Shown here: positions 12,075 through 24,948 of the stretch, in pieces
How the letters are laid out: every line of letters starts with the position of its first letter
Numbering within the stretch: position 1 is the stretch's first letter
Assembly (NCBI RefSeq): GCF_000007185.1
Contig: NC_003551.1
Coordinates: 695,456 to 727,455 of the forward strand
Source of the DNA: Methanopyrus kandleri AV19
GTDB taxonomy: Archaea; JAADCQ01; Methanopyri; Methanopyrales; Methanopyraceae
Direction of reading: 5' to 3'
Length of the DNA: 32,000 nt
Notes under the pieces: generated by a model
The model's input: only the letters and a program-made list of their open reading frames with translations
Told to the model about the DNA's origin: nothing
Database searches by the model: none
Position numbers and translations under genes: made by a program

Positions 12075-12988
12075 AGGGGGACACCATTACCGTGTCGGAG
12101 ACGATCCGAGTCGCCACTCGATCCAGCCGTCTGGCGATTATCCAGACCCGGGAGGTAATCGAGCTGCTGGAGCGGGAATCCCCGCGTGACGTCGAGGTTG
12201 AGATCGTGAAGACGAAGTCACGTGGGGACGTCGTTCGGGATCGACCCCTCCACAAGCTGGGTGAGAAGGGTGTGTTCGTGAAAGAGGTTGACAGGCTGGT
12301 ACTCGAAGGTAAGGCCGATATCGCCGTTCACAGCGCCAAAGACGTTCCTTCCGTCGTAGATTATCCCGTGGATGTGGCGGCTGTGCCTCCCCGGAGGGAC
12401 CCCCGAGAATGTCTGGTGTCGCGACACGGCGGACTCAAAGAACTTCCGCGGGGAGCTACCGTGGGGACCAGCAGTCCTAGACGGCGCGCGCAGATCCTCC
12501 TAGAAAGACCTGACTTGAAGGTGGAGCCGATGCGCGGGAACGTAGACACCAGGGTCTCCAAGGTGAGGCGGAGGGAGTACGACGCCGCCGTTCTCGCCAA
12601 AGTCGGGTTGGACCGGCTCGGGATGACATCCGAGGTTTCCGAGGTGTACGACCCGGAAGAGTTCGTGCCGCCGGCGGGCCAAGGGGCCCTGATGATCACC
12701 TGCCGCAAGGACGACGATCGCGTTAAACGCCTTCTGGAAGTCGTGGACGACGAGAAGAGTCGGGTGGAAGTCGAGACGGAGAAGGCCGTCGTGAGGGAGC
12801 TCGGAGTGGGTTGCTCGGAGCCTGTAGGAGTCCACGTGCGAGCTCGCGACGGTGATCACGTGAGGTTGGTGCTGGGACTGTTCGAAGAAGACGGCTCTTG
12901 CGGCCACGTACTCAAGATGCGGGGCTCGCCTGAGGACGTCGTCCGTGAGGCGGTGTCTCAGGCTAGGGAGGTGTTATCGGATGGGTGA
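12071..12988 (+). CDS. hemC: porphobilinogen deaminase (hydroxymethylbilane synthase)
   Basis: IRVATRSSRLAIIQT ... VKTKSRGD ... LGEKGVFVKEVD ... ADIAVHSAKDVP. GTGA overlap with the upstream gene. Confidence 0.9.
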   Translation: MKGDTITVSETIRVATRSSRLAIIQTREVIELLERESPRDVEVEIVKTKSRGDVVRDRPLHKLGEKGVFVKEVDRLVLEGKADIAVHSAKDVPSVVDYPVDVAAVPPRRDPRECLVSRHGGLKELPRGATVGTSSPRRRAQILLERPDLKVEPMRGNVDTRVSKVRRREYDAAVLAKVGLDRLGMTSEVSEVYDPEEFVPPAGQGALMITCRKDDDRVKRLLEVVDDEKSRVEVETEKAVVRELGVGCSEPVGVHVRARDGDHVRLVLGLFEEDGSCGHVLKMRGSPEDVVREAVSQAREVLSDG

Positions 12989-13772
12989 GCTGTACCTGGT
13001 CGGAGGGGGTCTCTCCGACGTTCGAGATCTCACGCTGCGGGCCCTTGAAGTGCTAGCTAGCGTGGAGTTGGTGCTGGTCGACACCTACACCAGCGTGTAC
13101 GACGTAAGCGAGGGCGACCTGAAACGGTTGCTCAACGGGTTCGGAGGTGATCCTGAAGTACGTATGTGCTCGCGGCGGGACCTGGAGGAGCGCTTCTTCG
13201 ACCTGTGTGAGGGGTACGATCGCGTCGCCCTGCTCTCCCCGGGCGACCCGATGGCAGCGACCACTCACGTGGCGCTGGTGGTCGAGGCCGCCGACCGTGG
13301 GTGGGACGTCGAGATAATCAACGGCGTATCGGTGTTCACCGCGGCACCATCCAAGTCGGGGCTGGAAATGTACCGGTTCGGACGTACCGCCACGATTCCG
13401 TTGAACGTGCGCTCCGTGTATCCCTACGATGTGCTCGAATCGAACCGGCAGGCCGGTTTACACACCCTCTTCCTGCTGGAAGTTGCTGAAGACGGGGAGT
13501 TCGTCTCTGTCGCTGACGCCGCCCGCTACCTATTGGAAATTGAGAGGGAAGAAGGTCGCGGAGTACTCGACCCCTCGGATCTCGCGATCGCCGTAGTGAG
13601 GCTGGGGTTCGAGGACGAGTTGGTGGCTTGGGGAACCCTCGAAGAACTCTCCGACTGGGAGCCCGGTGAACCTCCGCAAGCTCTAATACTGCCCGCCTCC
13701 CGACTCCGTGAAGCGGAGCGCGAATACATCCGCCGCGTCCTCCCACACATCCGAGATGTGCGTGGGGTCTAG
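12981..13772 (+). CDS. dphB: diphthine synthase (tetrapyrrole-methylase fold)
   Basis: MGELYLVGGGLSDVRDLTLRALEVL ... LSPGDPMAATTH. The ATG at 12981 overlaps the hemC stop by 8 nt. The longer track ORF from 12945 is unlikely. Confidence 0.9.
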   Translation: MGELYLVGGGLSDVRDLTLRALEVLASVELVLVDTYTSVYDVSEGDLKRLLNGFGGDPEVRMCSRRDLEERFFDLCEGYDRVALLSPGDPMAATTHVALVVEAADRGWDVEIINGVSVFTAAPSKSGLEMYRFGRTATIPLNVRSVYPYDVLESNRQAGLHTLFLLEVAEDGEFVSVADAARYLLEIEREEGRGVLDPSDLAIAVVRLGFEDELVAWGTLEELSDWEPGEPPQALILPASRLREAEREYIRRVLPHIRDVRGV

Positions 13773-13775
13773 CCT

Positions 13776-14132
13776 TTGGGTGAGGAGACTGGCGGTGACT
13801 ATCACGTCGTGCTCGAGGCCGCGTGGATCGTGTACAACGTCGACGACGAGGACGACGCTATCAACATCGCCATTGCCGAGGCGGGTAAGCGCTTGAACCG
13901 ACACGGCCTCGATTACGTGGATATCGATGTCGGGTTTTACGAGTGTCCTGAATGTGGTAATGAAATCGAAGGTGTGTGGATAGTAGCAGGTACAGCCCTC
14001 GTCCGACTGATTCTATCGATGCGAGTGTTCAACGCGGAAAGCGAGGAACACGCCATTCGCATCGCTAAGTACGAGATCGGTCAAGCGCTGGAGGATGTAC
14101 CCTTAGGTGTCGTTGAAGTAACTCCGCTCTGA
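13776..14132 (+). CDS. conserved archaeal protein, UPF0212/DUF555-like, with one CxxC
   Basis: [33 protein letters not shown] ... YECPECG resembles the UPF0212 family as I recall it. TTG start. Confidence 0.55.
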
Positions 14133-14136
14133 CCAT

Positions 14137-15246
14137 TTACTTACCCCTTACGAGATGCGCCCATATTAGCGCCGAGAGCAACGTGAACGTAGCCAAGGCG
14201 AAGGAGTTCATCGCCCTAGAGAACAGGAATACTCCTATCAGTGATTGGACTGAGAACGCGATCAGACAACCGAAGAGCATGGCCTCTCTCGCCAGGAATC
14301 TCGCCGTCATCCTACGCCTTCGTAGTTTTATGTACTCCGAGAGGCACCTCGATCCCACGTATAGTGTGGCCGCGACCCATATGGACAGTAATACCGCCCC
14401 GATGTACCCGAAGTCGAAGGCCCAGGTGAACAAGCCAGGCAGCATGTAATCGAGAAGGTCCTTTTTAACGACGAGTGCTCCATGTAGTGTAGGTACGTCG
14501 AGCCGGAACATCATGAGATATCCGACAGGCAGTGTGACGAACCCGTCACCGAAGCCCCGCCACTCGTATCCGGCGGGAAGCGCCTTCGTGGAGTGACCGA
14601 TGATGTGCGTGTTCTTCGCCACGAACTCGAGTCCCGGTACGGTGTATTCCGCGAATCGCTTGATACGGAGTGTCGGGCTGAACACGGGCTTATTCAGGAC
14701 GTAAGCGAGCAGTTCCAGGAGACCGAGGAAACCTATGGCCATCAGCGTGGCCATCACGATCGACCTTTTGCTCATCTTAGCTGCTCGGGCGGCAAAAGCG
14801 CGGAATCTCGACTCCACTTTCAAGTACTTCGCTATGAAATGCTCCGTAAGCGCCCAGCATAGGAACCAGGAGAGTAGGAAGTCACGATGCATAATTCCTC
14901 CGACCATTCCCACGTACACCCATAGGAGATTGAAGTATGGCCGAGTACGTCGGGCCGCCGTGATACCACGGGTTTCGAGCAGTTGCAGGAGGTACCTCGA
15001 GGTCGCCCAAGCGGCGAGTGCCAGTGGGCCGAACGGGTGCGTAAACTCGTGGCGTGATACGGGGAGGAACAGCGAGAAAGCGTCCACGGTGAATAGAAGG
15101 GCCAGCACTCCCAGTGTGAAGAGGGACAGTGAGAGGACCCTCTGTACCGTTACCGAGGAATAGCTCAGGGCGAACGGTATCGTCAGGTGGGTGATCACGA
15201 AGAAGTCCAGGAGGGCTTCACCCGTGTTATAGGGGACCACGTACAA
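14137..15246 (-). CDS. polytopic membrane protein (~9 TM) with large external loop and SEDS (FtsW/RodA)-like C-terminal motif; last gene of the cell-wall operon
   Basis: Hydrophobicity pattern. An ~80-aa loop is followed by LPGLFTWAFDFGYIGAVLLSIWVAATLYVGSRCL ... RFLAREAMLFGCLIAFSVQSLIGVF. Compare the SEDS block LPExHTDFIFaviGEElGfiGa ... Rf..lla.G......Q.fiN. 1-nt gap to the upstream gene. The functional call is hypothesis. Confidence 0.55.
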   Translation of the reverse strand: MYVVPYNTGEALLDFFVITHLTIPFALSYSSVTVQRVLSLSLFTLGVLALLFTVDAFSLFLPVSRHEFTHPFGPLALAAWATSRYLLQLLETRGITAARRTRPYFNLLWVYVGMVGGIMHRDFLLSWFLCWALTEHFIAKYLKVESRFRAFAARAAKMSKRSIVMATLMAIGFLGLLELLAYVLNKPVFSPTLRIKRFAEYTVPGLEFVAKNTHIIGHSTKALPAGYEWRGFGDGFVTLPVGYLMMFRLDVPTLHGALVVKKDLLDYMLPGLFTWAFDFGYIGAVLLSIWVAATLYVGSRCLSEYIKLRRRRMTARFLAREAMLFGCLIAFSVQSLIGVFLFSRAMNSFALATFTLLSALIWAHLVRGK

Positions 15247-15247
15247 G

Positions 15248-16498
15248 TTACCACGCCCGCAGCCTCCGATTTACGAGCTCTCTGATTCCTCCGAGCACGA
15301 TCAGCGCAACTCCTACGGCGGAGCTGATTAGACCGAGGGAGTGTAGTGTCTCAGGGGAGATCGGGGTCTTCAACGGCGGCTTTTTGTACCCCTCCGGTAG
15401 CGGACGCATGTAGATAGTGATCAGGTTGGCCTCGGGTTCCACTTTGACATCACCCGGTAGTATGTAGTCGTACCCCAACAGTGTGTTGTTGTCTATGTCG
15501 GAGTCGATCGCGCGGGCGATGTCCTCCGGCTGCTTCTTCCCGGCTTGGACCAGCGTCTGGACGGTCTCGACTATCGACACTTTATCGTACACGCTCTTGA
15601 TCCCGTAGACCCGGACGATCGGCTGGTCCTTCCTTACCGTGATCATGTCTCGGGCAACCTGCCAGGCGTACTCCGTTCGGAGGGAGGACCCACAGACGGG
15701 ACACCGCGAGTACTTGGAGGCCGCCGGGTAGGCGACGCTCCATCCACATTTGGGGCAGACTTTACGGTAGGCTGTGTCCATCGGGATGCCGCGCGCGTTG
15801 AGCTTGGGCGGGACGAAAGTGTCACCCGTCGACAGACCGGCGGTGATGTTGACTACACCACCTCCGTACTTCTCTCCGGACTTCTTGGCCACGTAACCCA
15901 TGATCCTCGTCACTATCTCCGTCGCGGGTAGACCGTCCCTGATCATCCTGCCGGCCATGATGGCGGCCTCTATTCGGACCTTCGTAGCGGTGCCGTACAT
16001 AGGGTTGCCCGGCGTGTTACGCAGGTGGATTACGGCGCACTTGACGTTCTTGGGTATACGGACGATGTTAGGGCCTCCGCTGCTGTGGTACTGCTTGATG
16101 ATGATCTTGTTCCCTTTCACGATCACCACGGCGATATCGTAGCTTCCGCCCACCGCAACGCCCTTCCCGGGGCCTCCGACCAGAAGTCGGTCCGTGGGTG
16201 ACCGGCTGATACCGGCCCTCACGGCACTTTCTATGTCCTCACCCAGCTCTAACGCCCGTATACACGCCAGGATAGCCTCCAGGCGTGCCGTACCCTTGCT
16301 CAGACCTCCCGCTAGGACGGCTACGTGTAGCTTCTTGGACACTAGGAACGTCGACTGGAACATGTTAGGAGCGAAGGACATCGAGGCTGCGGCTGCACCG
16401 TTGGGATCCTTGCCGCTGGGGTCCGTGATCACGATCATGTTGAAGGTAGCGGACGCCCCGGAGACCAGTGCCAGGAGCGCGATCAGCGGGATCAGCAC
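15248..16498 (-). CDS. exported, C-terminally membrane-anchored protein: Ntn-hydrolase-like (DUF1028-type) N-domain + Cys4 zinc ribbon
   Basis: N-terminal hydrophobic leader LIPLIALLALVSGASA followed by TFNMIVITDPSG, which has the same form as MTFSIVa.DP.tG at the N-terminus of DUF1028/Ntn proteins. CPKCG-x14-CPVCG. C-terminal TM LGLISSAVGVALIVLGG plus RRLR. GTG start. Confidence 0.6.
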   Translation of the reverse strand: MLIPLIALLALVSGASATFNMIVITDPSGKDPNGAAAASMSFAPNMFQSTFLVSKKLHVAVLAGGLSKGTARLEAILACIRALELGEDIESAVRAGISRSPTDRLLVGGPGKGVAVGGSYDIAVVIVKGNKIIIKQYHSSGGPNIVRIPKNVKCAVIHLRNTPGNPMYGTATKVRIEAAIMAGRMIRDGLPATEIVTRIMGYVAKKSGEKYGGGVVNITAGLSTGDTFVPPKLNARGIPMDTAYRKVCPKCGWSVAYPAASKYSRCPVCGSSLRTEYAWQVARDMITVRKDQPIVRVYGIKSVYDKVSIVETVQTLVQAGKKQPEDIARAIDSDIDNNTLLGYDYILPGDVKVEPEANLITIYMRPLPEGYKKPPLKTPISPETLHSLGLISSAVGVALIVLGGIRELVNRRLRAW

Positions 16499-16517: not shown

Positions 16518-16967
16518 CTACCTCGGCAGTCCGTAGTCTTCGATCACCCGGACCACGACGACCCCTGATCGTTTGATCGTGATCTGGACGGATCGAATGG
16601 GTTTGATCTTCGTTCCCGGGATCACGCTCCTCATCGCGTATATCCTCGCCCTCCTGATCGCCTCGTGCAGCGGGATTTTCTTGCCTTCCGGGGTGATGAG
16701 GGTTCCGCCCTTGATAACCGAACCGGGACGCAGGCCCGACGCCATCACGTTGCTACGTATGACCTCTTCCGGCAGGAAATCGCAGCCGACTACGTCGATA
16801 CCTATGATCCTGAGTCCCTCTTGCTTGGGTACCGGACGTGCCGCCCACGCTGTGTACTCCGCGATTCTTCCGATGCTGAGGAGTAGAGCACCCATCAGCA
16901 TGATCGCCAGGTTACGCCGGGAAACGGGCCACGGTTTGATCCACTTCCTCTTCCTTTCCTCTTCCAC
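16518..16967 (-). CDS. bitopic membrane protein (N-in) with FtsQ/DivIB POTRA-like external domain
   Basis: Basic N-terminus EEERKRKW and TM LAIMLMGALLLSIG. Then LRIIGIDVVGCDFLPEEVIRSNV..GLRPGSVI ... IRSVQITIKRSGVVVVRVIE follows the POTRA beta-alpha-alpha-beta-beta pattern of FtsQ. 2-nt gap to the upstream Mur ligase. Confidence 0.5.
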   Translation of the reverse strand: MEEERKRKWIKPWPVSRRNLAIMLMGALLLSIGRIAEYTAWAARPVPKQEGLRIIGIDVVGCDFLPEEVIRSNVMASGLRPGSVIKGGTLITPEGKKIPLHEAIRRARIYAMRSVIPGTKIKPIRSVQITIKRSGVVVVRVIEDYGLPR

Positions 16968-16969
16968 CG

Positions 16970-18400
16970 CTAGATCGCCCCCATATCGCGCAGGACCTCT
17001 CGAGCAGGTTCCATTCCTTGGGCTCCTCCCAGTAGAATCACGGTGTCGTCGTCCGCCAAGTCCAGTGCGCGCTCCAAAGCGTCTTCTAACCGATCGTAGT
17101 GCTCGTAGTCGATGCCGGAGCGCTCCAGTTCCTCCAGGAACGCCCTCCGCTCCTCAGGCCGCACTACGTTAGCATCGTCCACGAGGCCCTCTGATGAGGT
17201 CGCGATCACGTGGACGTGGATTCCCTCGTCCTGTAGATCCTTCGCGCCTTCAGCCAGCGCCCGAGCGATTTGACGGTTAATGTCGACGCCACGCGACCCG
17301 CGGATCGCGAACACAACAATCACCTTGGAGCGACCCAACCGTCGCAGGGCGCGAACAGTGGCGAGTACTCCGTCGGGATTGTGGCAGAAATCGTCGTAAA
17401 TCAGCGGGTCGTCGCACAGGCGTTCGAACCTCCGCTTCAAGGGTTGGTACGTCCTCAAGCCTTCGGCGATATCCTCCCGATCTATTCCTAGAGCTCCCGC
17501 GGCGGCTACGGCGGCCAACGCGTTGTACAGGAAGTGGTCCACCGGTAGGGGGAACTCCCGGACGGGTATTAGGGGTTCTTCGTCCAGTACTATCCACTCC
17601 TCCCCGTCGCGTTCCTCAATGTGGGAGTATCCTTCGTCCCATCCGTACCATACCGTCTCCACACCTTCCCTGGTCATCCGCCGTACGTACCGATCGTCAC
17701 GGTTGAGCACCGCGATACCTCCCTTTCGTAGGGCCCGCACGACACCGTATACAGCGTCAACCATCTCTTCCAGAGAGGAAACCAGGTTCGTGTGGTCCAC
17801 CCCGACGTTCGTCACGACCGCCAGCTCGCATTTGAGGGCCTTCGCCATCCGGTAGGCGTGGTCCTCCATTATTCGACCCGTAGGTAAGCCTTGTACCTCA
17901 GATACCTCCACGCACAGGTAATCTTCCGGCCGTTCCTCGCGCAACTCCATCGCGACCACGGGGTCTATGAGGGTGTTCTTCTCGGAACGGAAATCCGTGT
18001 TGCAGTAAGCATCGAAGCCGGCGGTATCGAGGATGTGGTGAAGCAAGTGATTCGTAGTCGACTTACCGTTAGTTCCCGTCACGCAGATCGCGGTAGCGTC
18101 AGGGGCGCACTTCTCACGGGCTACGCGCAGAGCGTACTCGTTCGCCCGATCCACCTCCGTCAGGATCAAGGGGATTCCGAGCTCGTCGCATCTCTCGATC
18201 AGCTTGCCGCGCGGGTGTTCAGTCACCAGACATGCCACGCCTCTCTCCGACGCGATCTCGGCACCTTTATCGTCCAACCACCATCGGATCACTACATCTC
18301 CTTCTTTCGCCCTTCCTAACGTGGAGAACCATCCGGCGATCATACTATCCGGGTCGCCTGAGCGTATTTCCCCTTCCACATTCTCAGCCAGCTCCCTCAC
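16970..18400 (-). CDS. Mur-ligase family protein (MurE/MurF-like; pseudomurein peptide ligase candidate)
   Basis: P-loop VTGTNGKSTT, TNVGVDH, DDFCHNPDG and a C-terminal Mur-ligase domain (VVFAIRGSRG ... ILLGGAQG). Confidence 0.85.
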   Translation of the reverse strand: MRELAENVEGEIRSGDPDSMIAGWFSTLGRAKEGDVVIRWWLDDKGAEIASERGVACLVTEHPRGKLIERCDELGIPLILTEVDRANEYALRVAREKCAPDATAICVTGTNGKSTTNHLLHHILDTAGFDAYCNTDFRSEKNTLIDPVVAMELREERPEDYLCVEVSEVQGLPTGRIMEDHAYRMAKALKCELAVVTNVGVDHTNLVSSLEEMVDAVYGVVRALRKGGIAVLNRDDRYVRRMTREGVETVWYGWDEGYSHIEERDGEEWIVLDEEPLIPVREFPLPVDHFLYNALAAVAAAGALGIDREDIAEGLRTYQPLKRRFERLCDDPLIYDDFCHNPDGVLATVRALRRLGRSKVIVVFAIRGSRGVDINRQIARALAEGAKDLQDEGIHVHVIATSSEGLVDDANVVRPEERRAFLEELERSGIDYEHYDRLEDALERALDLADDDTVILLGGAQGMEPAREVLRDMGAI

Positions 18401-18421: not shown

Positions 18422-19492
18422 TCACCCCACGGAGATCCAGAGTGCCACGGCGGCGAACACCGCTCCGGCGGTCCAATGGAGCGCCACAACCACGGGTTCG
18501 GGTAGGTCGTACTTGTACTGGATATGGTGGTGGAGAGGTTCCACAGCCAACCGGATCACGCCGGCTCGGTGAAGCAAGCTGATGAGCGTGGACAGTACTG
18601 GGACTCCTAAGGCGATCATAGCAGGTATCTCGATCTTGTAATATAGTGCTCCTGCCGCGTAAGCCGCCCCTAAGAAGCAACTCCCCGTGTCTCCCATGAA
18701 GATCTTAGCCGGGTATCTGTTATGGAACAGGAAACCCAGGGACGCTCCGGCAAGTGATGCGAAGAAGGCAGCACCCGGAAGCTGGCCCTGTCCCAGGCAT
18801 ACGCCGGAGCAAGCCAGTGAGGCCAGGAACAGCAGCCCGGCGGCCAGACCGTCCATCCCGTCGATGAGGTTCACGGCGTTGGTAGCGCCGACAATTCCGA
18901 ACACCGCGACCGGATAGAAAAGGTACGAGAGGTTCCAAACGCCGACCTTGGGTATCCAGAGCCATGTGGCGGGGACGATAGGAAGAACGAAGAGGGCGGC
19001 GCCAGTCTGTAGTGCGAGTTTCTCACGTTCACTCAATTCTTTCTTGATAGGCACCTCACCGACGATCTCGATGGCATCCGGGTCCTCTTCGAGTATCCTC
19101 TTCAGATCACGTTTCGCTTTCTCCGTGGCTACACGTGCCTCCTCGCCCGGTTGTAGTATGAGTCTTCCCAGCTCGATCGGTCGATTCGAGACGTTCCGTA
19201 CGACCTTCTGGAACTCTTCCACCTGCAATCCGAGCAGGTCGTCCACTATTCCTAGCACCATCATGGGGAGCGCTGAAGCTATAGGAGGGAGCGCCTGGAT
19301 GGAAGCTAGGAGGGGGCCGGACGCCGTTCCCAGTAAGATCCCCAGACCTCCCATGATGGGCATGCCGGACTTATGCGCGTGTTCCGTTACGATCGGGCGG
19401 TCTACCACGTTAGCTTCCCGCATGTACTTGCGGAGTAATCCAACCGTTACGGCCGAGGTTACTGTGGAGAGTGTAAACGTCTCGATGATCAT
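18422..19492 (-). CDS. MraY/WecA-family polyprenyl-phosphate phospho-sugar transferase (GT4)
   Basis: LGIVDDLLGL, NAVNLIDGMDGLA and FMGDTGS. There is an unusual ~75-aa charged insertion (EEFQKVVRNVSN ... KKELSEREKLA) between TM segments. Confidence 0.85.
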   Translation of the reverse strand: MIIETFTLSTVTSAVTVGLLRKYMREANVVDRPIVTEHAHKSGMPIMGGLGILLGTASGPLLASIQALPPIASALPMMVLGIVDDLLGLQVEEFQKVVRNVSNRPIELGRLILQPGEEARVATEKAKRDLKRILEEDPDAIEIVGEVPIKKELSEREKLALQTGAALFVLPIVPATWLWIPKVGVWNLSYLFYPVAVFGIVGATNAVNLIDGMDGLAAGLLFLASLACSGVCLGQGQLPGAAFFASLAGASLGFLFHNRYPAKIFMGDTGSCFLGAAYAAGALYYKIEIPAMIALGVPVLSTLISLLHRAGVIRLAVEPLHHHIQYKYDLPEPVVVALHWTAGAVFAAVALWISVG

Positions 19493-19508: not shown

Positions 19509-20648
19509 TCATAAGTACTCCTCGATTTCCCTCAGCCTCCGTCGATACTCACGTTCGGCCCGCTTCACGTCCGCTCCTGCAGCCTTGAGCGCTGAGCGGA
19601 GCCTCGTGAGGGCTTCTTTAAAAGAGTCCCCCCTCACGGTGACACGACCACCTACGTCGAAGCGTCCATAGTACTCGTAGAACACGTGGTACACTCCGCC
19701 GTCGAACATCTCACGCAGGGGATCCTTGTCCGTAGGGCGCCAAACGGGACACTCGATGGCGCACCATAATTTCCTTATCTTCGGTGGCCTCCATCGATCG
19801 GCCGCCATATCGACCAGCTCACGGAGCGGCCATATTCCCGTGCATCCGGACGTCATGTACCTGGTGCCGCTGGGTCTCGGGTTGAACTCGAGGAACCAGA
19901 ACTCGTTCTCCCGGACTACCACGTCGAAGTCCACGTTGCCCTCCAGTCCCAGATGTTCCACGACTCTTACCGCGCACCTTCTTATCTTGCGCTCCACGGA
20001 CGGGTCGATCGGGGCCGGGCTCATCCGCATACGATCGATCGGATGACGACGGTCCGCCGTGGATCCTTTGAACACCGGAACCAGCGGCACCACCTCACCG
20101 TCCCAGGATAGAACTTCGATCGAAACTTCCGCACCTTCGATGAACTCCTCTACCAGCTTACGTCCCGATACTCTCGGCTTGTGCGTCTCGTGGACCGTGA
20201 CTCCGAGCCCCGCCTGTGACCGTGGATCCTTCACGACTACCGGTGGACTGATCGATGGCCTTTCGTTCTCGACGACTTCCCATTCAGGCGTCGGTACGTT
20301 CAGTTCTTCGAAGGCGCGTTTCGTTCTCACTTTATCGATCCCGATTTCAACGCTCTCGCGATCAGACGCCACAACCCGGATACCTTCGGCTTCCAGCTCT
20401 TCTTTCATCTCCCCCACTGCCGGTAGCGGATCGTCTACACCGATGAGTGGTACTACACCGTCTACGTGCCGCTCGCGGGCGATTCTCGTGGGATGTTCCA
20501 TACCGCGCGGTACGAAGTGCACCTCATCCGCCAGCTCCCAGTCCCTGCTCCTCGGGTTCGACTCGGTGAGTATACGGTACACTCCCGTGGAGCCGGCGTA
20601 CTCCGCCACGTCCCGGAGTAGCCTCGCGCCGACGAAGAGTACCTTCAC
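19509..20648 (-). CDS. ATP-grasp ligase (carbamoyl-phosphate-synthase/Ddl-like)
   Basis: Pre-ATP-grasp Rossmann MKVLFVGA, ATP-grasp body (KVRTKRAFEELNVPTP ... VVVKDPRSQAGLGV ... LVEEFIEG ... FLEFNPRPSG). 4-nt overlap with the upstream Mur ligase. Confidence 0.8.
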   Translation of the reverse strand: MKVLFVGARLLRDVAEYAGSTGVYRILTESNPRSRDWELADEVHFVPRGMEHPTRIARERHVDGVVPLIGVDDPLPAVGEMKEELEAEGIRVVASDRESVEIGIDKVRTKRAFEELNVPTPEWEVVENERPSISPPVVVKDPRSQAGLGVTVHETHKPRVSGRKLVEEFIEGAEVSIEVLSWDGEVVPLVPVFKGSTADRRHPIDRMRMSPAPIDPSVERKIRRCAVRVVEHLGLEGNVDFDVVVRENEFWFLEFNPRPSGTRYMTSGCTGIWPLRELVDMAADRWRPPKIRKLWCAIECPVWRPTDKDPLREMFDGGVYHVFYEYYGRFDVGGRVTVRGDSFKEALTRLRSALKAAGADVKRAEREYRRRLREIEEYL

Positions 20649-22183
20649 CTTTCGTCCCCCAGCACTCGCTCGACTTCTTCAGAGATCTCTTCCCGGTACT
20701 TCAGCGGAGCCTCTCCGAACAACACTACCACTTCGCAGTCCGAGCGGAGCGCCTCCTTGAGACCGTCCAACACCTGCTCCCGAGAGGCACCCAGTGTACC
20801 CTTCTTCTCGAACGGCTTGGTGGCGCTCTCCGCTGCGATCACGTTGTCGGCGTCGACGCGGTCCATGACTTCGTACGCCGCGTACGATGCCACCACCACT
20901 AGGTCGGCGAGATCCGCAGCTCTTCTGAGTATCTCTTCGTCTCCTTCCGGTCCCAGCTCCGAAGCTACGGCGATTACCGCGCAGACGCGCCGCTCCCGGT
21001 AAGCCTCCTTCACGCATCTCAACGTCGCGTCCACGCCGGCGGGATTATGGCCGTAGTCTAAGATCACGACTCGCTCGCCGTCGTCCCAGAGTACTTCTAA
21101 CCTGCCCTCGACTCCTTCGAAGGACTGTAGCGCCTCTACCACGTCCTCCACATCAAGTCCCAAGAACTCGGAGCAGACGGCTATCGCCGCGAGGGCGTTG
21201 TAAGCGTTGTGGAGCCCCATCACGGGTAGTCGAACCTCGTACTCCCCATCGGGACAGATCAGTCGGAACCCGGACAAGTCAACGTCCGTAGCTAGGTAGT
21301 CCGGCTCGGGAGATCGCAGGCCACACTCCCGGCACTTGAAGGGACCGACCCAAGGGAGGATCTCATGGACTTCAACGTGTCCGCCGCACCAGCACTCTTT
21401 TTCCGAGGTATCGAACGGTTCCACGTCCAACCCGTAGTACACGATATCGCCGTTGAAATCCACCACCTCGGGGGCACCAACTACCAACGGGTCTTGAGCG
21501 TTCAGCACGGCTAGCTCGATGGTGTCCGGCTCCAACAGTTCGGCCTCACATCTGGCGTACGTCAGGAAATCGCCCGCCTCGTTCAGATGGTCCGGGGTGA
21601 TGTTGGTAACGCAGACGCACTCCACCTGGGATAACTCCGCGGCTTCCAGGATCTCCCCTCTCTTCCCGAAAGTTGCTATCTCTAAGACGCTGACGTCCCC
21701 TGGGAGACGCGCCTGAAGTGGGGGGAGTAATCCGACGTTCCCTTGCATGCCCGGCAAACCGTGGTGCGGGGCCTCGAGCCCGAGTTGCTCGCACACGTGC
21801 CTGATCATCGCCACAGTCGTGGTCTTCCCGTTGGTCCCACCGACTCCGATCACCGGTCGTGTGGGCGGTAACATGTCGAGGAGCTCCTTCACTTCCACGA
21901 TTTCGCAGCCGTGATCCTCGGCCAGTCGGTACGGCTTAGCATCGCGTGATAGGCTCGGAGGAGGTACCACAACTTCGGCTCGTTCGAAGATCTCGGGTGG
22001 GTGGCCTCCCAATACGAGCTCCACGTTACTGTATTCGAGAAGCGTCTCGGCGAACTCGCACTCATCCCGGAGATCCGACGCGATCACATCGTATCCGCGC
22101 TCCGCGAGGACCCGGGCCGCTAGATTGCATACGGGCCCACAGACCCCGATCACGAGAACGGTCGACCAGGGAAGTTCGGCCAA
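20645..22183 (-). CDS. Mur-ligase family protein with MurC/D-like N-domain and MurT-like Cys4 zinc ribbon insertion
   Basis: N-terminal Rossmann LVIGVCGPVCNLAARVLAERGYDVIASD. P-loop GVGGTNGKTTT and TNITPDHL. Ribbon CWCGG-x17-CRECG at nt 21323-21394. DYGHNPAG. TTG start. Confidence 0.85.
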   Translation of the reverse strand: MAELPWSTVLVIGVCGPVCNLAARVLAERGYDVIASDLRDECEFAETLLEYSNVELVLGGHPPEIFERAEVVVPPPSLSRDAKPYRLAEDHGCEIVEVKELLDMLPPTRPVIGVGGTNGKTTTVAMIRHVCEQLGLEAPHHGLPGMQGNVGLLPPLQARLPGDVSVLEIATFGKRGEILEAAELSQVECVCVTNITPDHLNEAGDFLTYARCEAELLEPDTIELAVLNAQDPLVVGAPEVVDFNGDIVYYGLDVEPFDTSEKECWCGGHVEVHEILPWVGPFKCRECGLRSPEPDYLATDVDLSGFRLICPDGEYEVRLPVMGLHNAYNALAAIAVCSEFLGLDVEDVVEALQSFEGVEGRLEVLWDDGERVVILDYGHNPAGVDATLRCVKEAYRERRVCAVIAVASELGPEGDEEILRRAADLADLVVVASYAAYEVMDRVDADNVIAAESATKPFEKKGTLGASREQVLDGLKEALRSDCEVVVLFGEAPLKYREEISEEVERVLGDER

Positions 22184-22235: not shown

Positions 22236-23240
22236 TCACGGCCGCGCTCCCGGTATCGTTCGGCCGTACTCGGCCAGTATCGACCTCATGAGCTTTTTAA
22301 CGTCGCGAAGAAGGCGTTCGGCTTCCTCCCTGTCACCGGTCGCTAACCGTACGAACGCTTCGATATCGAGGTGTTCCACCCGGTCGTCGATCTTTCCGTA
22401 CTCCGACATTACGAAGTACAGTTGCGTGAACCTCTCCCTCCGCTCGACCCTGTTGAGGGTTCCGCGTACCAGCGACCTCAGGGCTTGACGTGCGTACATG
22501 AGCAGCCGGTACGTGAGGTCTCGGATGATTTCATCCTCATCTCTCGGTCCGTCCGGGATACCGTTTGGGAACGCTGCTTTCTCTTCCAACCCCAAGATAT
22601 CCAGCACGCGTTCCGGATCCTCCTCTGGGGTCTCCGTCTCCCGGAGGTACGCTAGGGCCTCTTGAGGTGTTGCCACACCTTCCAGCATGATGGTACATGC
22701 GCGACCTGTCAGAGGGTTGTACCCGACCTCCTCTATGAACCTGTGCACGCCGTACGGACGGATCGGACACGTGTACTCGGGATTGAACCAGCCCAGACTG
22801 CTCACGATATCGCGGATGTCTTCCCACGTCCACCGACGGAGTGCCGGGTACCGGACCACGGTGACTCCTGGAGGGTAGGGGTGGGTAGTGCGTCTCCCGA
22901 ACTTCCCGCGGAGCTCGTGACCGGTGAGGACTGTTGCGCATCCTAGTTCACGGGCGCGAAGGCACGCGGCGGTTAGGACGCTTCTACCACACTTCGTACA
23001 TATCGGGCGTCCTTCCTTCAGAGCCCGCGCGAACCATTCTCGAAGTCGTAGCTTGACCACCTCGTGATCCACGCCGACGTGTTCCGCGGCTTTCCGGGCG
23101 TTCTCTAAACATGTCTTATCGGTGAACTCGTGGACTACTGTTACGGCTACCTTAACATTCCACCTATCGGCGGCGTCTATCAGCGTGGCTACACTGTCCT
23201 TACCGCCGGAAAGTGCTATGCTGGAGGGAGGGCTAGTCAT
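22236..23240 (-). CDS. PP-loop ATP pyrophosphatase (TtcA/TilS-like N-domain) with unassigned helical C-terminal half
   Basis: SGGKDS PP-loop. CTKCGRSVLTAACLRARELGCATVLTGHE resembles the CxxC...GH block of TtcA-type enzymes. The ATG overlaps the gltX stop by 8 nt. Confidence 0.7.
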   Translation of the reverse strand: MTSPPSSIALSGGKDSVATLIDAADRWNVKVAVTVVHEFTDKTCLENARKAAEHVGVDHEVVKLRLREWFARALKEGRPICTKCGRSVLTAACLRARELGCATVLTGHELRGKFGRRTTHPYPPGVTVVRYPALRRWTWEDIRDIVSSLGWFNPEYTCPIRPYGVHRFIEEVGYNPLTGRACTIMLEGVATPQEALAYLRETETPEEDPERVLDILGLEEKAAFPNGIPDGPRDEDEIIRDLTYRLLMYARQALRSLVRGTLNRVERRERFTQLYFVMSEYGKIDDRVEHLDIEAFVRLATGDREEAERLLRDVKKLMRSILAEYGRTIPGARP

Positions 23241-24948
23241 GCGCGTACACAGCCCTTACCCCACCGCTGGAGACCTCTTCGAGTCGCACGAAGTACAGCC
23301 GTTCGAACTGGACGGTGCTGCCGGCCTGTTCGCGCTCGACGTTAATTTCGGCGTATCCACTCTCAACGCTACCGTCCGGGCGGACGACCTCGCACCGTAC
23401 TGCCTGGTCGGGCGGTACCCAGTGGACGATTTGAGCACCTTCCTCTTTCGCGATTCGGTAGTCGTCGCTGTGATACCTGCCTCGCAACCATCCGTCTCCG
23501 ACTTCCTCGATCTCGACGTTGACGGCGTTCATCAGCCGAACTACGTCGCCCTCCCACAGGTCTTCTGCGTCTTCACCGTCCAACAGTGCTCGGGCCACGC
23601 CGTTCTCAGGATGTAGAATTAAGACCCTCTCTCCCTCATCCCGATCGGGGTGTAGAGGCAGTCGGGCCAGGACCGACTCCTTCATCCCTTCGATCCGTAA
23701 TTCGACAGGATCACGGACGAAGAAGTACCGGTGAGACTCAGGGTCGATCATCTTACGGTTCCGAGCGTAAAGATGCTCCCAGCTGAACGTCGCGTCCACG
23801 TCGGTCAGGCCGATCTCGAGGATAGTCTCACGTATTGCTTCCGGCTTAATACCCCGGCGTCGGAGGGCGCGTAAGGTAGCCACTCGGACGTCGTCCCACC
23901 CTGTGTACTCTCCTGAATCGATTCCACGGCGGATCTCGGAAGTGCTTAGCACGGCACCTTCAACCTTCAGAATCCCGTAGTGAACGTATTCCGGAGTGTC
24001 CCACCCCAGATGCTCGAACACGTACTTCTGACGCCGTGTGTTGGACTCATGATCCTTCCCACGAAGTACGTGCGTGATGTTCATGAGATGGTCGTCCACA
24101 GCGACGGCGAAGTTCATCGTCGGCCACACAAGGTACCGAGAACCCGTCATCGGGTGCTCTTCTTCGACGATCCTGAACGCTATCCACTCCCTCACCGCGG
24201 GATCCGGGTGATCAACTTCGGTCTTGACACGTACGACGGCTTCTCCTTCTGAGAAAGTACCGTCCAACATCTCCTCCCAGAGCTCGAGGTTCTCCTCCTT
24301 ATCCCGAGAGCGGCACGGGCAGGCTCGCCCCACGTCGCGGAGTCTCCGGAACTCGTCTGGATCACAGGTACAAACGTACGCCCCTTCCCGCTCCAGCAGC
24401 TCCTCGCAAACCATGTAATACAGTTCTATCCTGTTAGACTGCACGTACCGTTCGTCGATGTTGACTCCGAGCCACTCCAGATCCTCTTCGATCATGTCGT
24501 AGGCCTCAGGGTCCACGCGACGCGGGTCGGTGTCTTCAATGCGGAGGACTAAGGTGCCGTCGTACCTTCTAGCGTATTCGTCGTTAAGTACTGCGGCACG
24601 GGCGTGACCTATGTGGAGGGGACCCGAAGGGTTCGGTGCGAACCGAAGGCGAACGTTCCCCGGTTCAGCTCCGGGAAGGGGTTTGAGCCCTTCTTTGTCC
24701 CGGGCTACGTCTTCGCGCGGTCCTCCGAGTTCTTCCAGCTCGCGTCTGATTTCCTCTCCGGACATCTTGTTAACTTCGCGGACCACCTCTCTGACGGTCT
24801 TCAGGACTTCTTTCGCCCTAGGACGTAGCTCTTCGTGTTCCTTCATGATCTTCTTCATCACCGCGTTGGGATTCGCCCTCCCACCGTATCGGGCCGCGTT
24901 CTCCAGAGCGTACCTGCGGACGAGATCTCGAAGTTCCTTCTCCTCCAC
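23233..24948 (-). CDS. gltX: glutamyl-tRNA synthetase (archaeal type)
   Basis: FAPNPSGPLHIGHARAA (HIGH), class I catalytic core and an archaeal/eukaryal-type anticodon-binding C-terminus. GTG start with GGAG 8 nt upstream. Confidence 0.95.
   Translation of the reverse strand: MEEKELRDLVRRYALENAARYGGRANPNAVMKKIMKEHEELRPRAKEVLKTVREVVREVNKMSGEEIRRELEELGGPREDVARDKEGLKPLPGAEPGNVRLRFAPNPSGPLHIGHARAAVLNDEYARRYDGTLVLRIEDTDPRRVDPEAYDMIEEDLEWLGVNIDERYVQSNRIELYYMVCEELLEREGAYVCTCDPDEFRRLRDVGRACPCRSRDKEENLELWEEMLDGTFSEGEAVVRVKTEVDHPDPAVREWIAFRIVEEEHPMTGSRYLVWPTMNFAVAVDDHLMNITHVLRGKDHESNTRRQKYVFEHLGWDTPEYVHYGILKVEGAVLSTSEIRRGIDSGEYTGWDDVRVATLRALRRRGIKPEAIRETILEIGLTDVDATFSWEHLYARNRKMIDPESHRYFFVRDPVELRIEGMKESVLARLPLHPDRDEGERVLILHPENGVARALLDGEDAEDLWEGDVVRLMNAVNVEIEEVGDGWLRGRYHSDDYRIAKEEGAQIVHWVPPDQAVRCEVVRPDGSVESGYAEINVEREQAGSTVQFERLYFVRLEEVSSGGVRAVYAHD

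Follow-up and report, generated by a model that had tools for sequence, protein, structure and literature searches.

A pseudomurein-operon protein of Methanopyrus kandleri with a predicted Ntn-hydrolase fold and an invariant threonine at its predicted signal-peptidase site

The window analyzed here, a 32,000-nucleotide stretch of the Methanopyrus kandleri AV19 genome (NC_003551.1, positions 695,456 to 727,455; all coordinates below count from its first letter), carries a gene of the Mfer764 family within an operon for pseudomurein synthesis, and its product is best read as an exported, membrane-anchored protein with the fold of hydrolases of the N-terminal-nucleophile (Ntn) type, in which Thr18 would become the first residue after removal of the leader. 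This reading of an exported, threonine-exposing Ntn-fold protein passed every in silico test run, and from it we infer, with good motivation, a catalytic role. Most likely, the protein catalyzes acyl transfer on the stem peptides of pseudomurein; to the more specific proposal that it is a type-I membrane protein which belongs to the machinery of pseudomurein assembly and serves there as a cross-linking transpeptidase, we assign a probability of about 0.4. The pathway of pseudomurein synthesis dates, as a proposal, from the early 1990s, and to our knowledge no enzymes have since been assigned to its extracellular steps, glycan polymerization and the cross-linking of the peptides. In the proposed mechanism, Sec-dependent export followed by a signal-peptidase cut after Ala17 would make Thr18 residue 1 of a membrane-tethered, outward-facing Ntn-fold domain, whose free α-amino group would activate the hydroxyl of the same residue, as in other threonine Ntn enzymes. 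The hydroxyl would then attack an amide of a pseudomurein stem peptide, releasing the terminal residue and leaving an acyl-enzyme ester, which would be resolved mainly by the amine of a neighboring stem, thereby cross-linking the wall. The enzyme would work alongside the pathway for the lipid-linked precursor, whose genes lie in this operon too. The gene and the parts of it that carry this proposal are the following.

15248..16498, minus strand: whole open reading frame (ORF) of the Mfer764-family protein, 416 residues, GTG start, stop codon at 15248-15250.

16448..16498, minus strand: predicted signal peptide, residues 1-17 (MLIPLIALLALVSGASA), with A-S-A at positions -3 to -1; assigned from the sequence, the leaders of the orthologues being of the classic Sec/signal peptidase I (Sec/SPI) type.

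16445..16447, minus strand: codon ACC of Thr18, the predicted mature residue 1 and candidate N-terminal nucleophile, invariant in the orthologues.

15803..16447, minus strand: Ntn-hydrolase-like α-β-β-α domain, residues 18-232 (mature residues 1-215), predicted from an AlphaFold2 (AF2) model, Foldseek matches and conservation.

The ORF product matches a hypothetical protein of M. kandleri at 100% identity, and the NCBIfam scan placed it in NF053642, "Mfer764 family" (E 9e-172; 571.3 bits against a curated cutoff of 560), with residues 17-412 aligned on profile positions 1-392 of 393. The gene family itself has been catalogued before. Mfer763 and Mfer764 were described as highly conserved proteins with transmembrane segments, always encoded after pMurE in pseudomurein gene cluster 2 and reported to have no homology to annotated proteins (Subedi et al. 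2021, PMC10117817), and Mfer764 was recovered as OG0001472, specific to pseudomurein archaea, present in one copy per genome, with no known domain and one transmembrane segment (Lupo et al. 2025, PMC11915815). Table 1 of the latter study lists the signal peptide of OG0001472 as "Other"; in its supplementary file 4, SignalP calls Sec/SPI in two of the four members, including that of Methanopyrus sp. KOL6. The two 'OTHER' calls may stem from truncated start annotations, and leaders of only 6-9 residues occur in 20 database entries of the orthologues. When 1.84 billion cluster representatives were searched exhaustively with HMMER, the Mfer764 family alone was recovered, as two full-length 50% clusters and fragments, and the family is restricted to pseudomurein methanogens. 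In the literature searched, no connection of an Ntn hydrolase with the Mfer764 family or with the synthesis of pseudomurein was found, and the structural and mechanistic reading given here appears to be new. One further HMMER match, P0176, was set aside as a spurious repeat protein. Two other entries are composite: P0170 (244 residues) has the exact C-terminal anchor of Methanobrevibacter Mfer764 (...NILNILGSIQTAVGIILILLVIFRSRLLKSFQNR) after an unrelated acidic N-terminal part, and in P0124 (330 residues) a piece of Mfer764 is fused to a Cys-rich C-terminus of unrelated sequence. These two entries are probably chimeras due to assembly or frameshifts, a shared anchor module being possible.

The first line of evidence is the conservation around the predicted cleavage site, which was assessed in 117 aligned orthologues (44-78% identity; 118 sequences with the query). 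In M. kandleri, the leader MLIPLIALLALVSGASA, ending in A17 (codon GCT, 16448-16450), is followed by T18-FNMIVITDPSGKDPNGAAAAS. All 116 orthologues that cover the site have Thr at +1; position -1 is Ala in 115 of them, -2 is Ala, Ser, or Gly, and -3 is Val, Ser, or Ala throughout. The n-region is net-positive in 94 of the 95 full-length orthologue leaders; a strongly hydrophobic core is common to all 95, with a median 10-mer hydrophobicity of 3.4. The column entropy, 1.2-2.0 bits across the leader, drops to 0 exactly at Thr+1, and conservation along the protein is highest in mature residues 1-38 (63% invariant, versus 12-38% elsewhere). Judged from the aligned sequences, this pattern is far beyond chance, and so sharp a boundary between -1 and +1 is what one would predict for an N-terminus that is essential for function and is generated by signal peptidase I. 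Conservation of the threonine had been set beforehand as a check on the original prediction, and it holds without exception at the predicted signal-peptidase site; the ORF, the leader, T18, the Cys knuckles at nt 15692-15757, and the C-terminal hydrophobic helix that had been described are likewise all present. The A-x-A|T context suggests that the leader is removed by signal peptidase I instead of autocatalysis, self-cleavage of the Ala-Thr bond being another possible way of freeing the threonine. Cys is the second mature residue (16442-16444, minus strand) in 102 of the 118 sequences (T-C-N), none of them from Methanopyrus; M. kandleri has Phe there, and Met, Leu, or Thr occurs in others. 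Because of this distribution, a mechanism for the whole family in which Cys2 is the nucleophile, freed by cleavage after the threonine or through a lipobox, was rejected.

The second line of evidence is the predicted fold. The mature sequence and the 118-sequence alignment were given to AF2, and the resulting model (m5d28697838aa) has a mean predicted local distance difference test score (pLDDT) of 85 and a predicted template modeling score (pTM) of 0.71, the first two 10-residue blocks reaching pLDDT values of 94 and 93. In mature numbering, the model has strands at 2-7, 18-23, 32-37, and 42-47, six more between 87 and 142, and one at 196-200, with helices at 52-67, 72-82, 154-170, and 175-189. 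The element order over mature residues 1-200 is β-β-β-β-α-α-β6-α-α-β, with strand 1 starting at residue 2, an order that, with its N-terminal first strand, we take to be that of the proteasome/HslV-type Ntn hydrolases. The four-layer α-β-β-α sandwich is present in the predicted domain. When the model was compared with the PDB by Foldseek, ranks 1-8 went to human Taspase1 in circularly permuted form (probability 1.0 and E 2e-6 to 5e-5, with about 270 columns aligned), followed by HslV (E 5e-4 and weaker; target-normalized template modeling (TM) scores of 0.55-0.59) and then Anbu, so that the best 14 matches are all Ntn hydrolases, at probabilities of 0.98-1.0. The nucleophile Thr is residue 2 of the Taspase1 construct and residue 1 of the HslV chain 1m4y, and in the Mfer764 model Thr1 is predicted to occupy the corresponding position of a nucleophile at the start of the first strand. 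The α-β-β-α Ntn fold that had been postulated from the sequence is thus also the one predicted by AF2 and Foldseek.

In the Ntn-like domain, the invariant blocks are, in mature numbering, T1-x-N3, T8-D9-P-x-G12-x-D14-P-N16-G, S22/S24, N28-MFQST, G47-G48, H141-L-R-N-T-x-G-N-P, R170-D171-G, and G-E192-K-Y-G-G-G. These blocks bear on whether the protein is an enzyme at all, since it could instead have no catalytic role and serve the synthesis complex as a scaffold or regulator with a retained Ntn-like sandwich, as the proteasome α subunits do. Such a role would agree with the fact that Thr1 is the sole catalytic residue that could be placed in three dimensions, Lys38 not being strictly invariant, but it would not predict a threonine invariant exactly at the predicted processed N-terminus or a peak of conservation in the first 38 residues, and the strong conservation of the polar motifs HLRNTxGNP, RDG, and GEKYGGG is unexpected for a scaffold. 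We therefore regard a purely structural role as quite improbable, and favor an enzyme with Thr1 as its nucleophile.

The remaining part of the protein consists of the following segments.

15668..15772, minus strand: zinc-ribbon-like insert, residues 243-277, with the putative ligand codons of C248, C251, C266, and C269 at 15692-15757; identified from conservation and sub-threshold Pfam matches.

15410..15667, minus strand: C-terminal α/β domain, residues 278-363, from the AF2 secondary structure; no separate fold match was obtained for it.

15347-15409, minus strand: Pro-rich linker before the transmembrane anchor.

15284..15346, minus strand: C-terminal transmembrane anchor, L385-I405, from the sequence; AF2 helix 365-398 in mature numbering.

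15251-15283, minus strand: basic cytoplasmic tail, R406-W416 (RELVNRRLRAW).

The claim that the protein is exported and anchored in type-I orientation agrees with the Sec-type leaders of the family and with the C-terminal transmembrane segment followed by a basic tail; one transmembrane segment is predicted in all four OG0001472 members in the supplement of Lupo et al. (2025, PMC11915815). With a cleaved leader and a C-terminal anchor bearing a positively charged tail, the domain should lie outside the membrane, and this combination is the sole arrangement that gives a free N-terminus and a membrane tether together. The ribbon had been given as CPKCG-x14-CPVCG. Both knuckles, C248-P-K-C251-G and C266-P-V-C269-G, are there, and the spacer from G252 to C266 is of 13 residues, not 14. 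Among the 118 sequences, C248 and C266 are invariant, whereas Asp takes the place of C251 in 18 of them (Cys in 100) and of C269 in 34 (Cys in 84), with no other residue at either position, as would befit the conserved metal-binding ribbon that had been predicted. The pairs formed by these two variable ligands are Cys/Cys in 84, Cys/Asp in 16, and Asp/Asp in 18 sequences, the knuckle CPxDG being found in many Methanobacteriales. Such a series suggests a graded Cys4, Cys3Asp, or Cys2Asp2 metal site in the extracytoplasmic domain, and since Asp is the one replacement found at the variable ligands, a disulfide at this place is unlikely. The Pfam zinc-ribbon models matched the Mfer764 protein below threshold (E 0.006-0.8). 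In the fold search of a viral structure library, the ribbon locally matched a small protein of His1 virus, ORF33, at rank 19.

The third line of evidence is the position of the gene in an operon consisting, besides the Mfer764 gene, of the genes below; the first four were assigned from Pfam and NCBIfam.

20645-22183, minus strand: pMurC.

19509-20648, minus strand: ATP-grasp protein (Ddl_archaea).

18422-19492, minus strand: MraY-like family transferase.

16970-18400, minus strand: pMurE.

16518..16967, minus strand: Mfer763-family protein of 149 residues, with a hydrophobic segment at the N-terminus and about 100 residues that form a conserved domain (NF053641, E 1e-50).

14137..15246, minus strand: polytopic membrane protein of 369 residues with about 10 transmembrane helices (OG0000796), starting 1 nt after the Mfer764 stop.

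In the window, these genes stand in the order pMurC / ATP-grasp / MraY / pMurE / Mfer763 / Mfer764 / polytopic gene with gaps of 0-20 nt, and the series from ATP-grasp to Mfer764 recurs in two Methanopyrus-like and two Methanobacteriales contigs (L001, L002, L004, and L005). The connection with pseudomurein that had been proposed is supported by the location of the gene inside this operon, behind pMurC, ATP-grasp, MraY, pMurE, and Mfer763. The same context bears on a reading in which the protein is an Ntn protease or acyl-transferase acting on some other extracytoplasmic substrate, for example, in the processing of wall or surface proteins or in the modification of a lipid-linked precursor. 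The fold is silent on the substrate, the proteasome-like relatives cleave proteins, and the conserved partner Mfer763 has no assigned function, all of which would leave room for such an activity; against this, the strict co-occurrence of the family with pseudomurein and the strict operon link to pMurE and MraY make it improbable, and we take the pseudomurein stem peptide as the candidate substrate.

Several observations weigh against a cross-linking Ntn enzyme. As had been cautioned at the outset, the M. kandleri leader, which begins at a GTG codon, lacks a charged n-region, and no in-frame ATG, GTG, or TTG was found 5' of this start. In L001 (7911-8003), the orthologue has the leader ...WWVAVLALLVALPSAASA|TFN in frame with no preceding ATG, GTG, or TTG, which points to a non-canonical start codon or a sequence error; in L002 (7941-8060), the leader ends in ...QPVSP|T, with a Pro at -1 that is unusual for signal peptidase I. 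Sequence homology to Ntn families was sought with Pfam, PDB, and profile comparisons, and none was found. The placement of Thr1 on the nucleophile is based on chain order and strand positions, and the family alignment is shallow (Neff ~2.1), limiting the confidence in the AF2 model. PP2C phosphatases also occur among the PDB fold matches from rank 15 on (E 1.5e-3 and weaker), and PP2C proteins top the list from the viral structure library. Nothing computed separates transfer from hydrolysis. Finally, the literature proposes that exported transglutaminases (OG0000044) form the Glu-Lys cross-link; specific to pseudomurein archaea is also a sortase-like protein. With regard to annotation, the orthologues in L001 and L002 have been mis-started by gene callers, the L001 gene having been begun at an internal Met, with the leader ...VAVLALLVALPSAASA|TFN upstream in frame.

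The sequence searches define what kind of Ntn protein this may be. In Pfam, the M. kandleri protein and 21 orthologues (E≤10) gave the sub-threshold zinc ribbons and nothing else, and neither phmmer nor a profile hmmsearch against the PDB returned a relevant match. Compared by hhalign, the family profile reached a probability of 0.2% with the EcAIII β subunit and 0.2% with E. coli HslV, and the N-terminal motif was not picked up against either of these or against 2imh, all probabilities being below 1%. Membership in four known families was rejected accordingly. For DUF1028 (PF06267), to which a likeness had been pointed out, the N-terminus of the SPO2555-like protein 2imh, TFSILAHDPETGAIGGAAATGS, does resemble TFNMIVITDPSGKDPNGAAAAS of Mfer764, but the likeness is not significant: none of the 21 members matches the Pfam model at E≤10, the BLASTP E value is 26, the hhalign alignment falls on another region (0.65%), and 2imh is absent among the best 50 fold matches. 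γ-Glutamyl transpeptidase (GGT, PF01019), which had been cited as an example of an Ntn enzyme, yields no Pfam or PDB sequence match and does not appear among the best 50 structural matches either. The protein has no Pfam match to Asparaginase_2/Taspase (PF01112), the likeness being structural only and the mature chain being predicted to begin at Thr, nor to Proteasome/HslV (PF00227), although the fold is similar. Since no sequence-level link to DUF1028, asparaginase-2, HslV, or GGT is seen, the most fitting description of Mfer764 is a new family of the Ntn fold, Ntn-like by its predicted fold and N-terminus.

The PP2C matches raise the question of whether the protein could instead be a PP2C/PPM-like metal-dependent phosphatase, which has a four-layer α-β-β-α architecture as well, with D9, D14, D171, and D209 binding the metal. 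SpoIIE, PPM1K, PppA, and ABI1 are the proteins concerned in the PDB list, with E values of 1.5e-3 to 1e-2. However, the 14 better matches are all Ntn hydrolases, the E value of Taspase1 being about 1000-fold better; the target-normalized TM scores of the phosphatases do not exceed 0.39, versus 0.55-0.59 for HslV; and no PP2C or SpoIIE Pfam model matched at E≤10. In addition, the segment following strand 1 is modeled as a β-hairpin partner, as in Ntn enzymes, and a phosphatase would leave the invariant Thr at the cleavage site unexplained. A phosphatase is accordingly extremely improbable, and an Ntn-type enzyme is retained in what follows.

Whether such an enzyme would transfer or hydrolyze is a matter of the chemistry at the acyl-enzyme stage. 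With the same fold and activation, it could act as a hydrolase only, that is, as a carboxypeptidase, endo(iso)peptidase, or sugar-peptide amidase by which pseudomurein is trimmed or opened as cells grow and divide, with cross-linking left to others such as the transglutaminases. Most Ntn enzymes do hydrolyze, the nearest fold matches (Taspase1/type-2 asparaginase/isoaspartyl peptidase and HslV) hydrolyze peptide, isopeptide, or side-chain amide bonds, and the transglutaminases are the published candidates for cross-linking. For these reasons, we take hydrolysis seriously as a possibility, while holding it somewhat less likely than transfer: in every pseudomurein lineage examined, the gene is a single-copy core gene co-transcribed with the precursor-synthesis genes, and a permanent membrane tether fits a synthase, whereas autolysins are usually multi-copy and wall-bound. 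A single-copy, operon-encoded, membrane-tethered protein thus fits a synthase better than an autolysin. Transfer by a cross-linking transpeptidase would also not be foreign to the fold, Thr-Ntn enzymes being reported to include transferases (PMC11947121). Homologues of the bacterial transglycosylases and transpeptidases are reported to be absent in pseudomurein archaea (PMC10117817). Pfam and NCBIfam scans of the Mfer764 protein gave no penicillin-binding protein (PBP) transpeptidase, YkuD L,D-transpeptidase, sortase, or transglutaminase; because no known cross-linking enzyme family was matched, the likeness to such enzymes concerns the proposed mechanism only.

The predicted Mfer764 protein is worth comparing with several known systems. 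The best fold match, the group of Taspase1, type-2 asparaginase, isoaspartyl peptidase, and glycosylasparaginase, has the Thr at the start of strand 1, as is predicted for Mfer764, and by eye shares with it the succession of Thr, hydrophobic strand, D-x-x-G(N), and A-A-A-x-S hairpin (EcAIII TVGAVALDLDGNLAAATSTGG versus TCNIIIITDPTGKDPNGAAAGSMS); these enzymes act on side-chain or isopeptide amides. In contrast, they are made as α-β precursors that cut themselves internally, whereas the mature Mfer764 chain is predicted to start at Thr after a Sec signal; the element order of Mfer764 is seen within the Asparaginase_2 family only in the engineered permuted Taspase; and the family members are soluble, without the zinc ribbon or the transmembrane anchor that Mfer764 has. 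In HslV, the proteasome β subunit, and Anbu, the element order from the N-terminal Thr is as in the Mfer764 model, the TM score extends over the whole 171-residue HslV chain, and the G47-G48 loop of Mfer764 between strand 4 and helix 1 presumably lies at the place of the HslV/proteasome oxyanion Gly. Unlike Mfer764, HslV and the proteasome are cytoplasmic, self-compartmentalizing rings, with no sequence similarity to it, and their propeptide or Met is removed autocatalytically or by Met-aminopeptidase instead of the signal peptidase proposed here. The mode of action proposed for Mfer764 is that of GGT, an extracytoplasmic Thr-Ntn enzyme whose acyl-enzyme is resolved by an amine and which handles γ-glutamyl isopeptide bonds, bonds similar to those of pseudomurein; GGT is, however, autoprocessed from a two-subunit precursor. 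The class B PBPs (FtsI/PBP2), which work with the SEDS proteins (FtsW/RodA), offer a functional analogy only, as tethered extracytoplasmic acyl-enzyme transpeptidases beside the Mur ligases and MraY; they have an internal Ser nucleophile and an N-terminal anchor, whereas in Mfer764 the nucleophile would be Thr1, the anchor is C-terminal, and the fold is unrelated. No account of the exposure of an Ntn nucleophile by loss of a signal peptide was found in the literature searched. A precedent is offered by the Gram-negative penicillin V acylases of the cholylglycine hydrolase family, in which the Ntn Cys1 is exposed by signal-peptide removal and not through self-cleavage; these enzymes differ from Mfer764 in having a Cys nucleophile and an unrelated sequence, in being soluble periplasmic tetramers, and in having no role in wall synthesis.

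The proposal turns Mfer764, so far an "unknown transmembrane protein", into a hypothesis that is open to mutation, with a defined residue (Thr18), a defined class of substrates, and covalent inhibitor chemistries. If it is true, Mfer764 would add a further mechanistic class of wall cross-linking enzymes to the Ser-dependent PBPs, the Cys-dependent L,D-transpeptidases, and the sortases, and archaeal wall cross-linking would use a catalytic fold different from the bacterial one. It would also help to explain the inactivity of β-lactams on pseudomurein archaea, and it would provide a lineage-specific, surface-exposed target for the inhibition of rumen and gut methanogens.

The two neighbors of Mfer764 in the operon invite an analogy with the bacterial divisome. 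The polytopic gene adjoins Mfer764 only in the Methanopyrus lineage; the proteins of OG0000796 have 9-10 transmembrane helices and about 360-370 residues. The AF2 model of the M. kandleri member (mf5ac187af55f; pLDDT 82, pTM 0.83) was matched by Foldseek in the PDB at a probability above 0.9 only by two FtsW chains from the FtsWIQLB divisome, 8p1u_A and 8bh1_A. These matches are weak, with E values of 5e-3 and 8e-3 and TM scores of 0.39 and 0.31-0.32, the rest having E 0.33 or weaker. The SEDS model of Pfam (PF01098) matched none of 61 members of the polytopic family, and hhalign gave a probability of at most 0.5% against SEDS, the best local alignment twice pairing the invariant AFDFGYxG with GEELGxxG. 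By eye, the motif KDxxDYMLPG...AFDFGYxG resembles the SEDS loop LPExHTDFIF..GEELGxxG, and one source gives the M. fervidus homologue a name that begins with 'Oligosaccharide repeat...'. Given the weakly FtsW/SEDS-like fold of its model, the polytopic protein is possibly a pseudomurein glycan polymerase. The domain pattern of Mfer763 (I.I.GV.V.G.D.VP.D.IR.NV..AG.R.GS ... V.V.K..G.V.V.V.ED) looks POTRA/FtsQ-like by eye; homology could not be demonstrated by sequence, hhalign giving a probability of 0.2% to residues 51-92 of E. coli FtsQ, which we take to be its POTRA region. By analogy with the gene order of the E. coli dcw cluster, we hypothesize that Mfer763, Mfer764, and the polytopic protein may form an FtsQ/FtsI/FtsW-like trio; that they make up a full archaeal counterpart of FtsW-FtsI-FtsQ, with a SEDS-like polymerase, the Mfer764 transpeptidase, and a bitopic Mfer763, is a tentative idea that we consider doubtful at this stage.

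Two further features of the surroundings deserve mention. Upstream of pMurC, and in the same orientation, a gene for a 334-residue protein (22236-23240, minus strand) with only a weak PP-loop (LarE-like) match lies between pMurC and the gene for glutamate--tRNA ligase (23233-24948, minus strand), an arrangement found at all three Methanopyrus-like loci; the counterparts in L001 and L002 have no recorded Pfam match. This gene may belong to the operon, and the presence of a Glu-activating enzyme beside a pathway that starts from Glu may be a coincidence. Past the downstream end of the operon, on the plus strand, are a DUF555 protein with a CPxCG zinc knuckle (13776-14132) and a TP_methylase-family protein (12945-13772), a pair that flanks the operon in L001 and L002 too.

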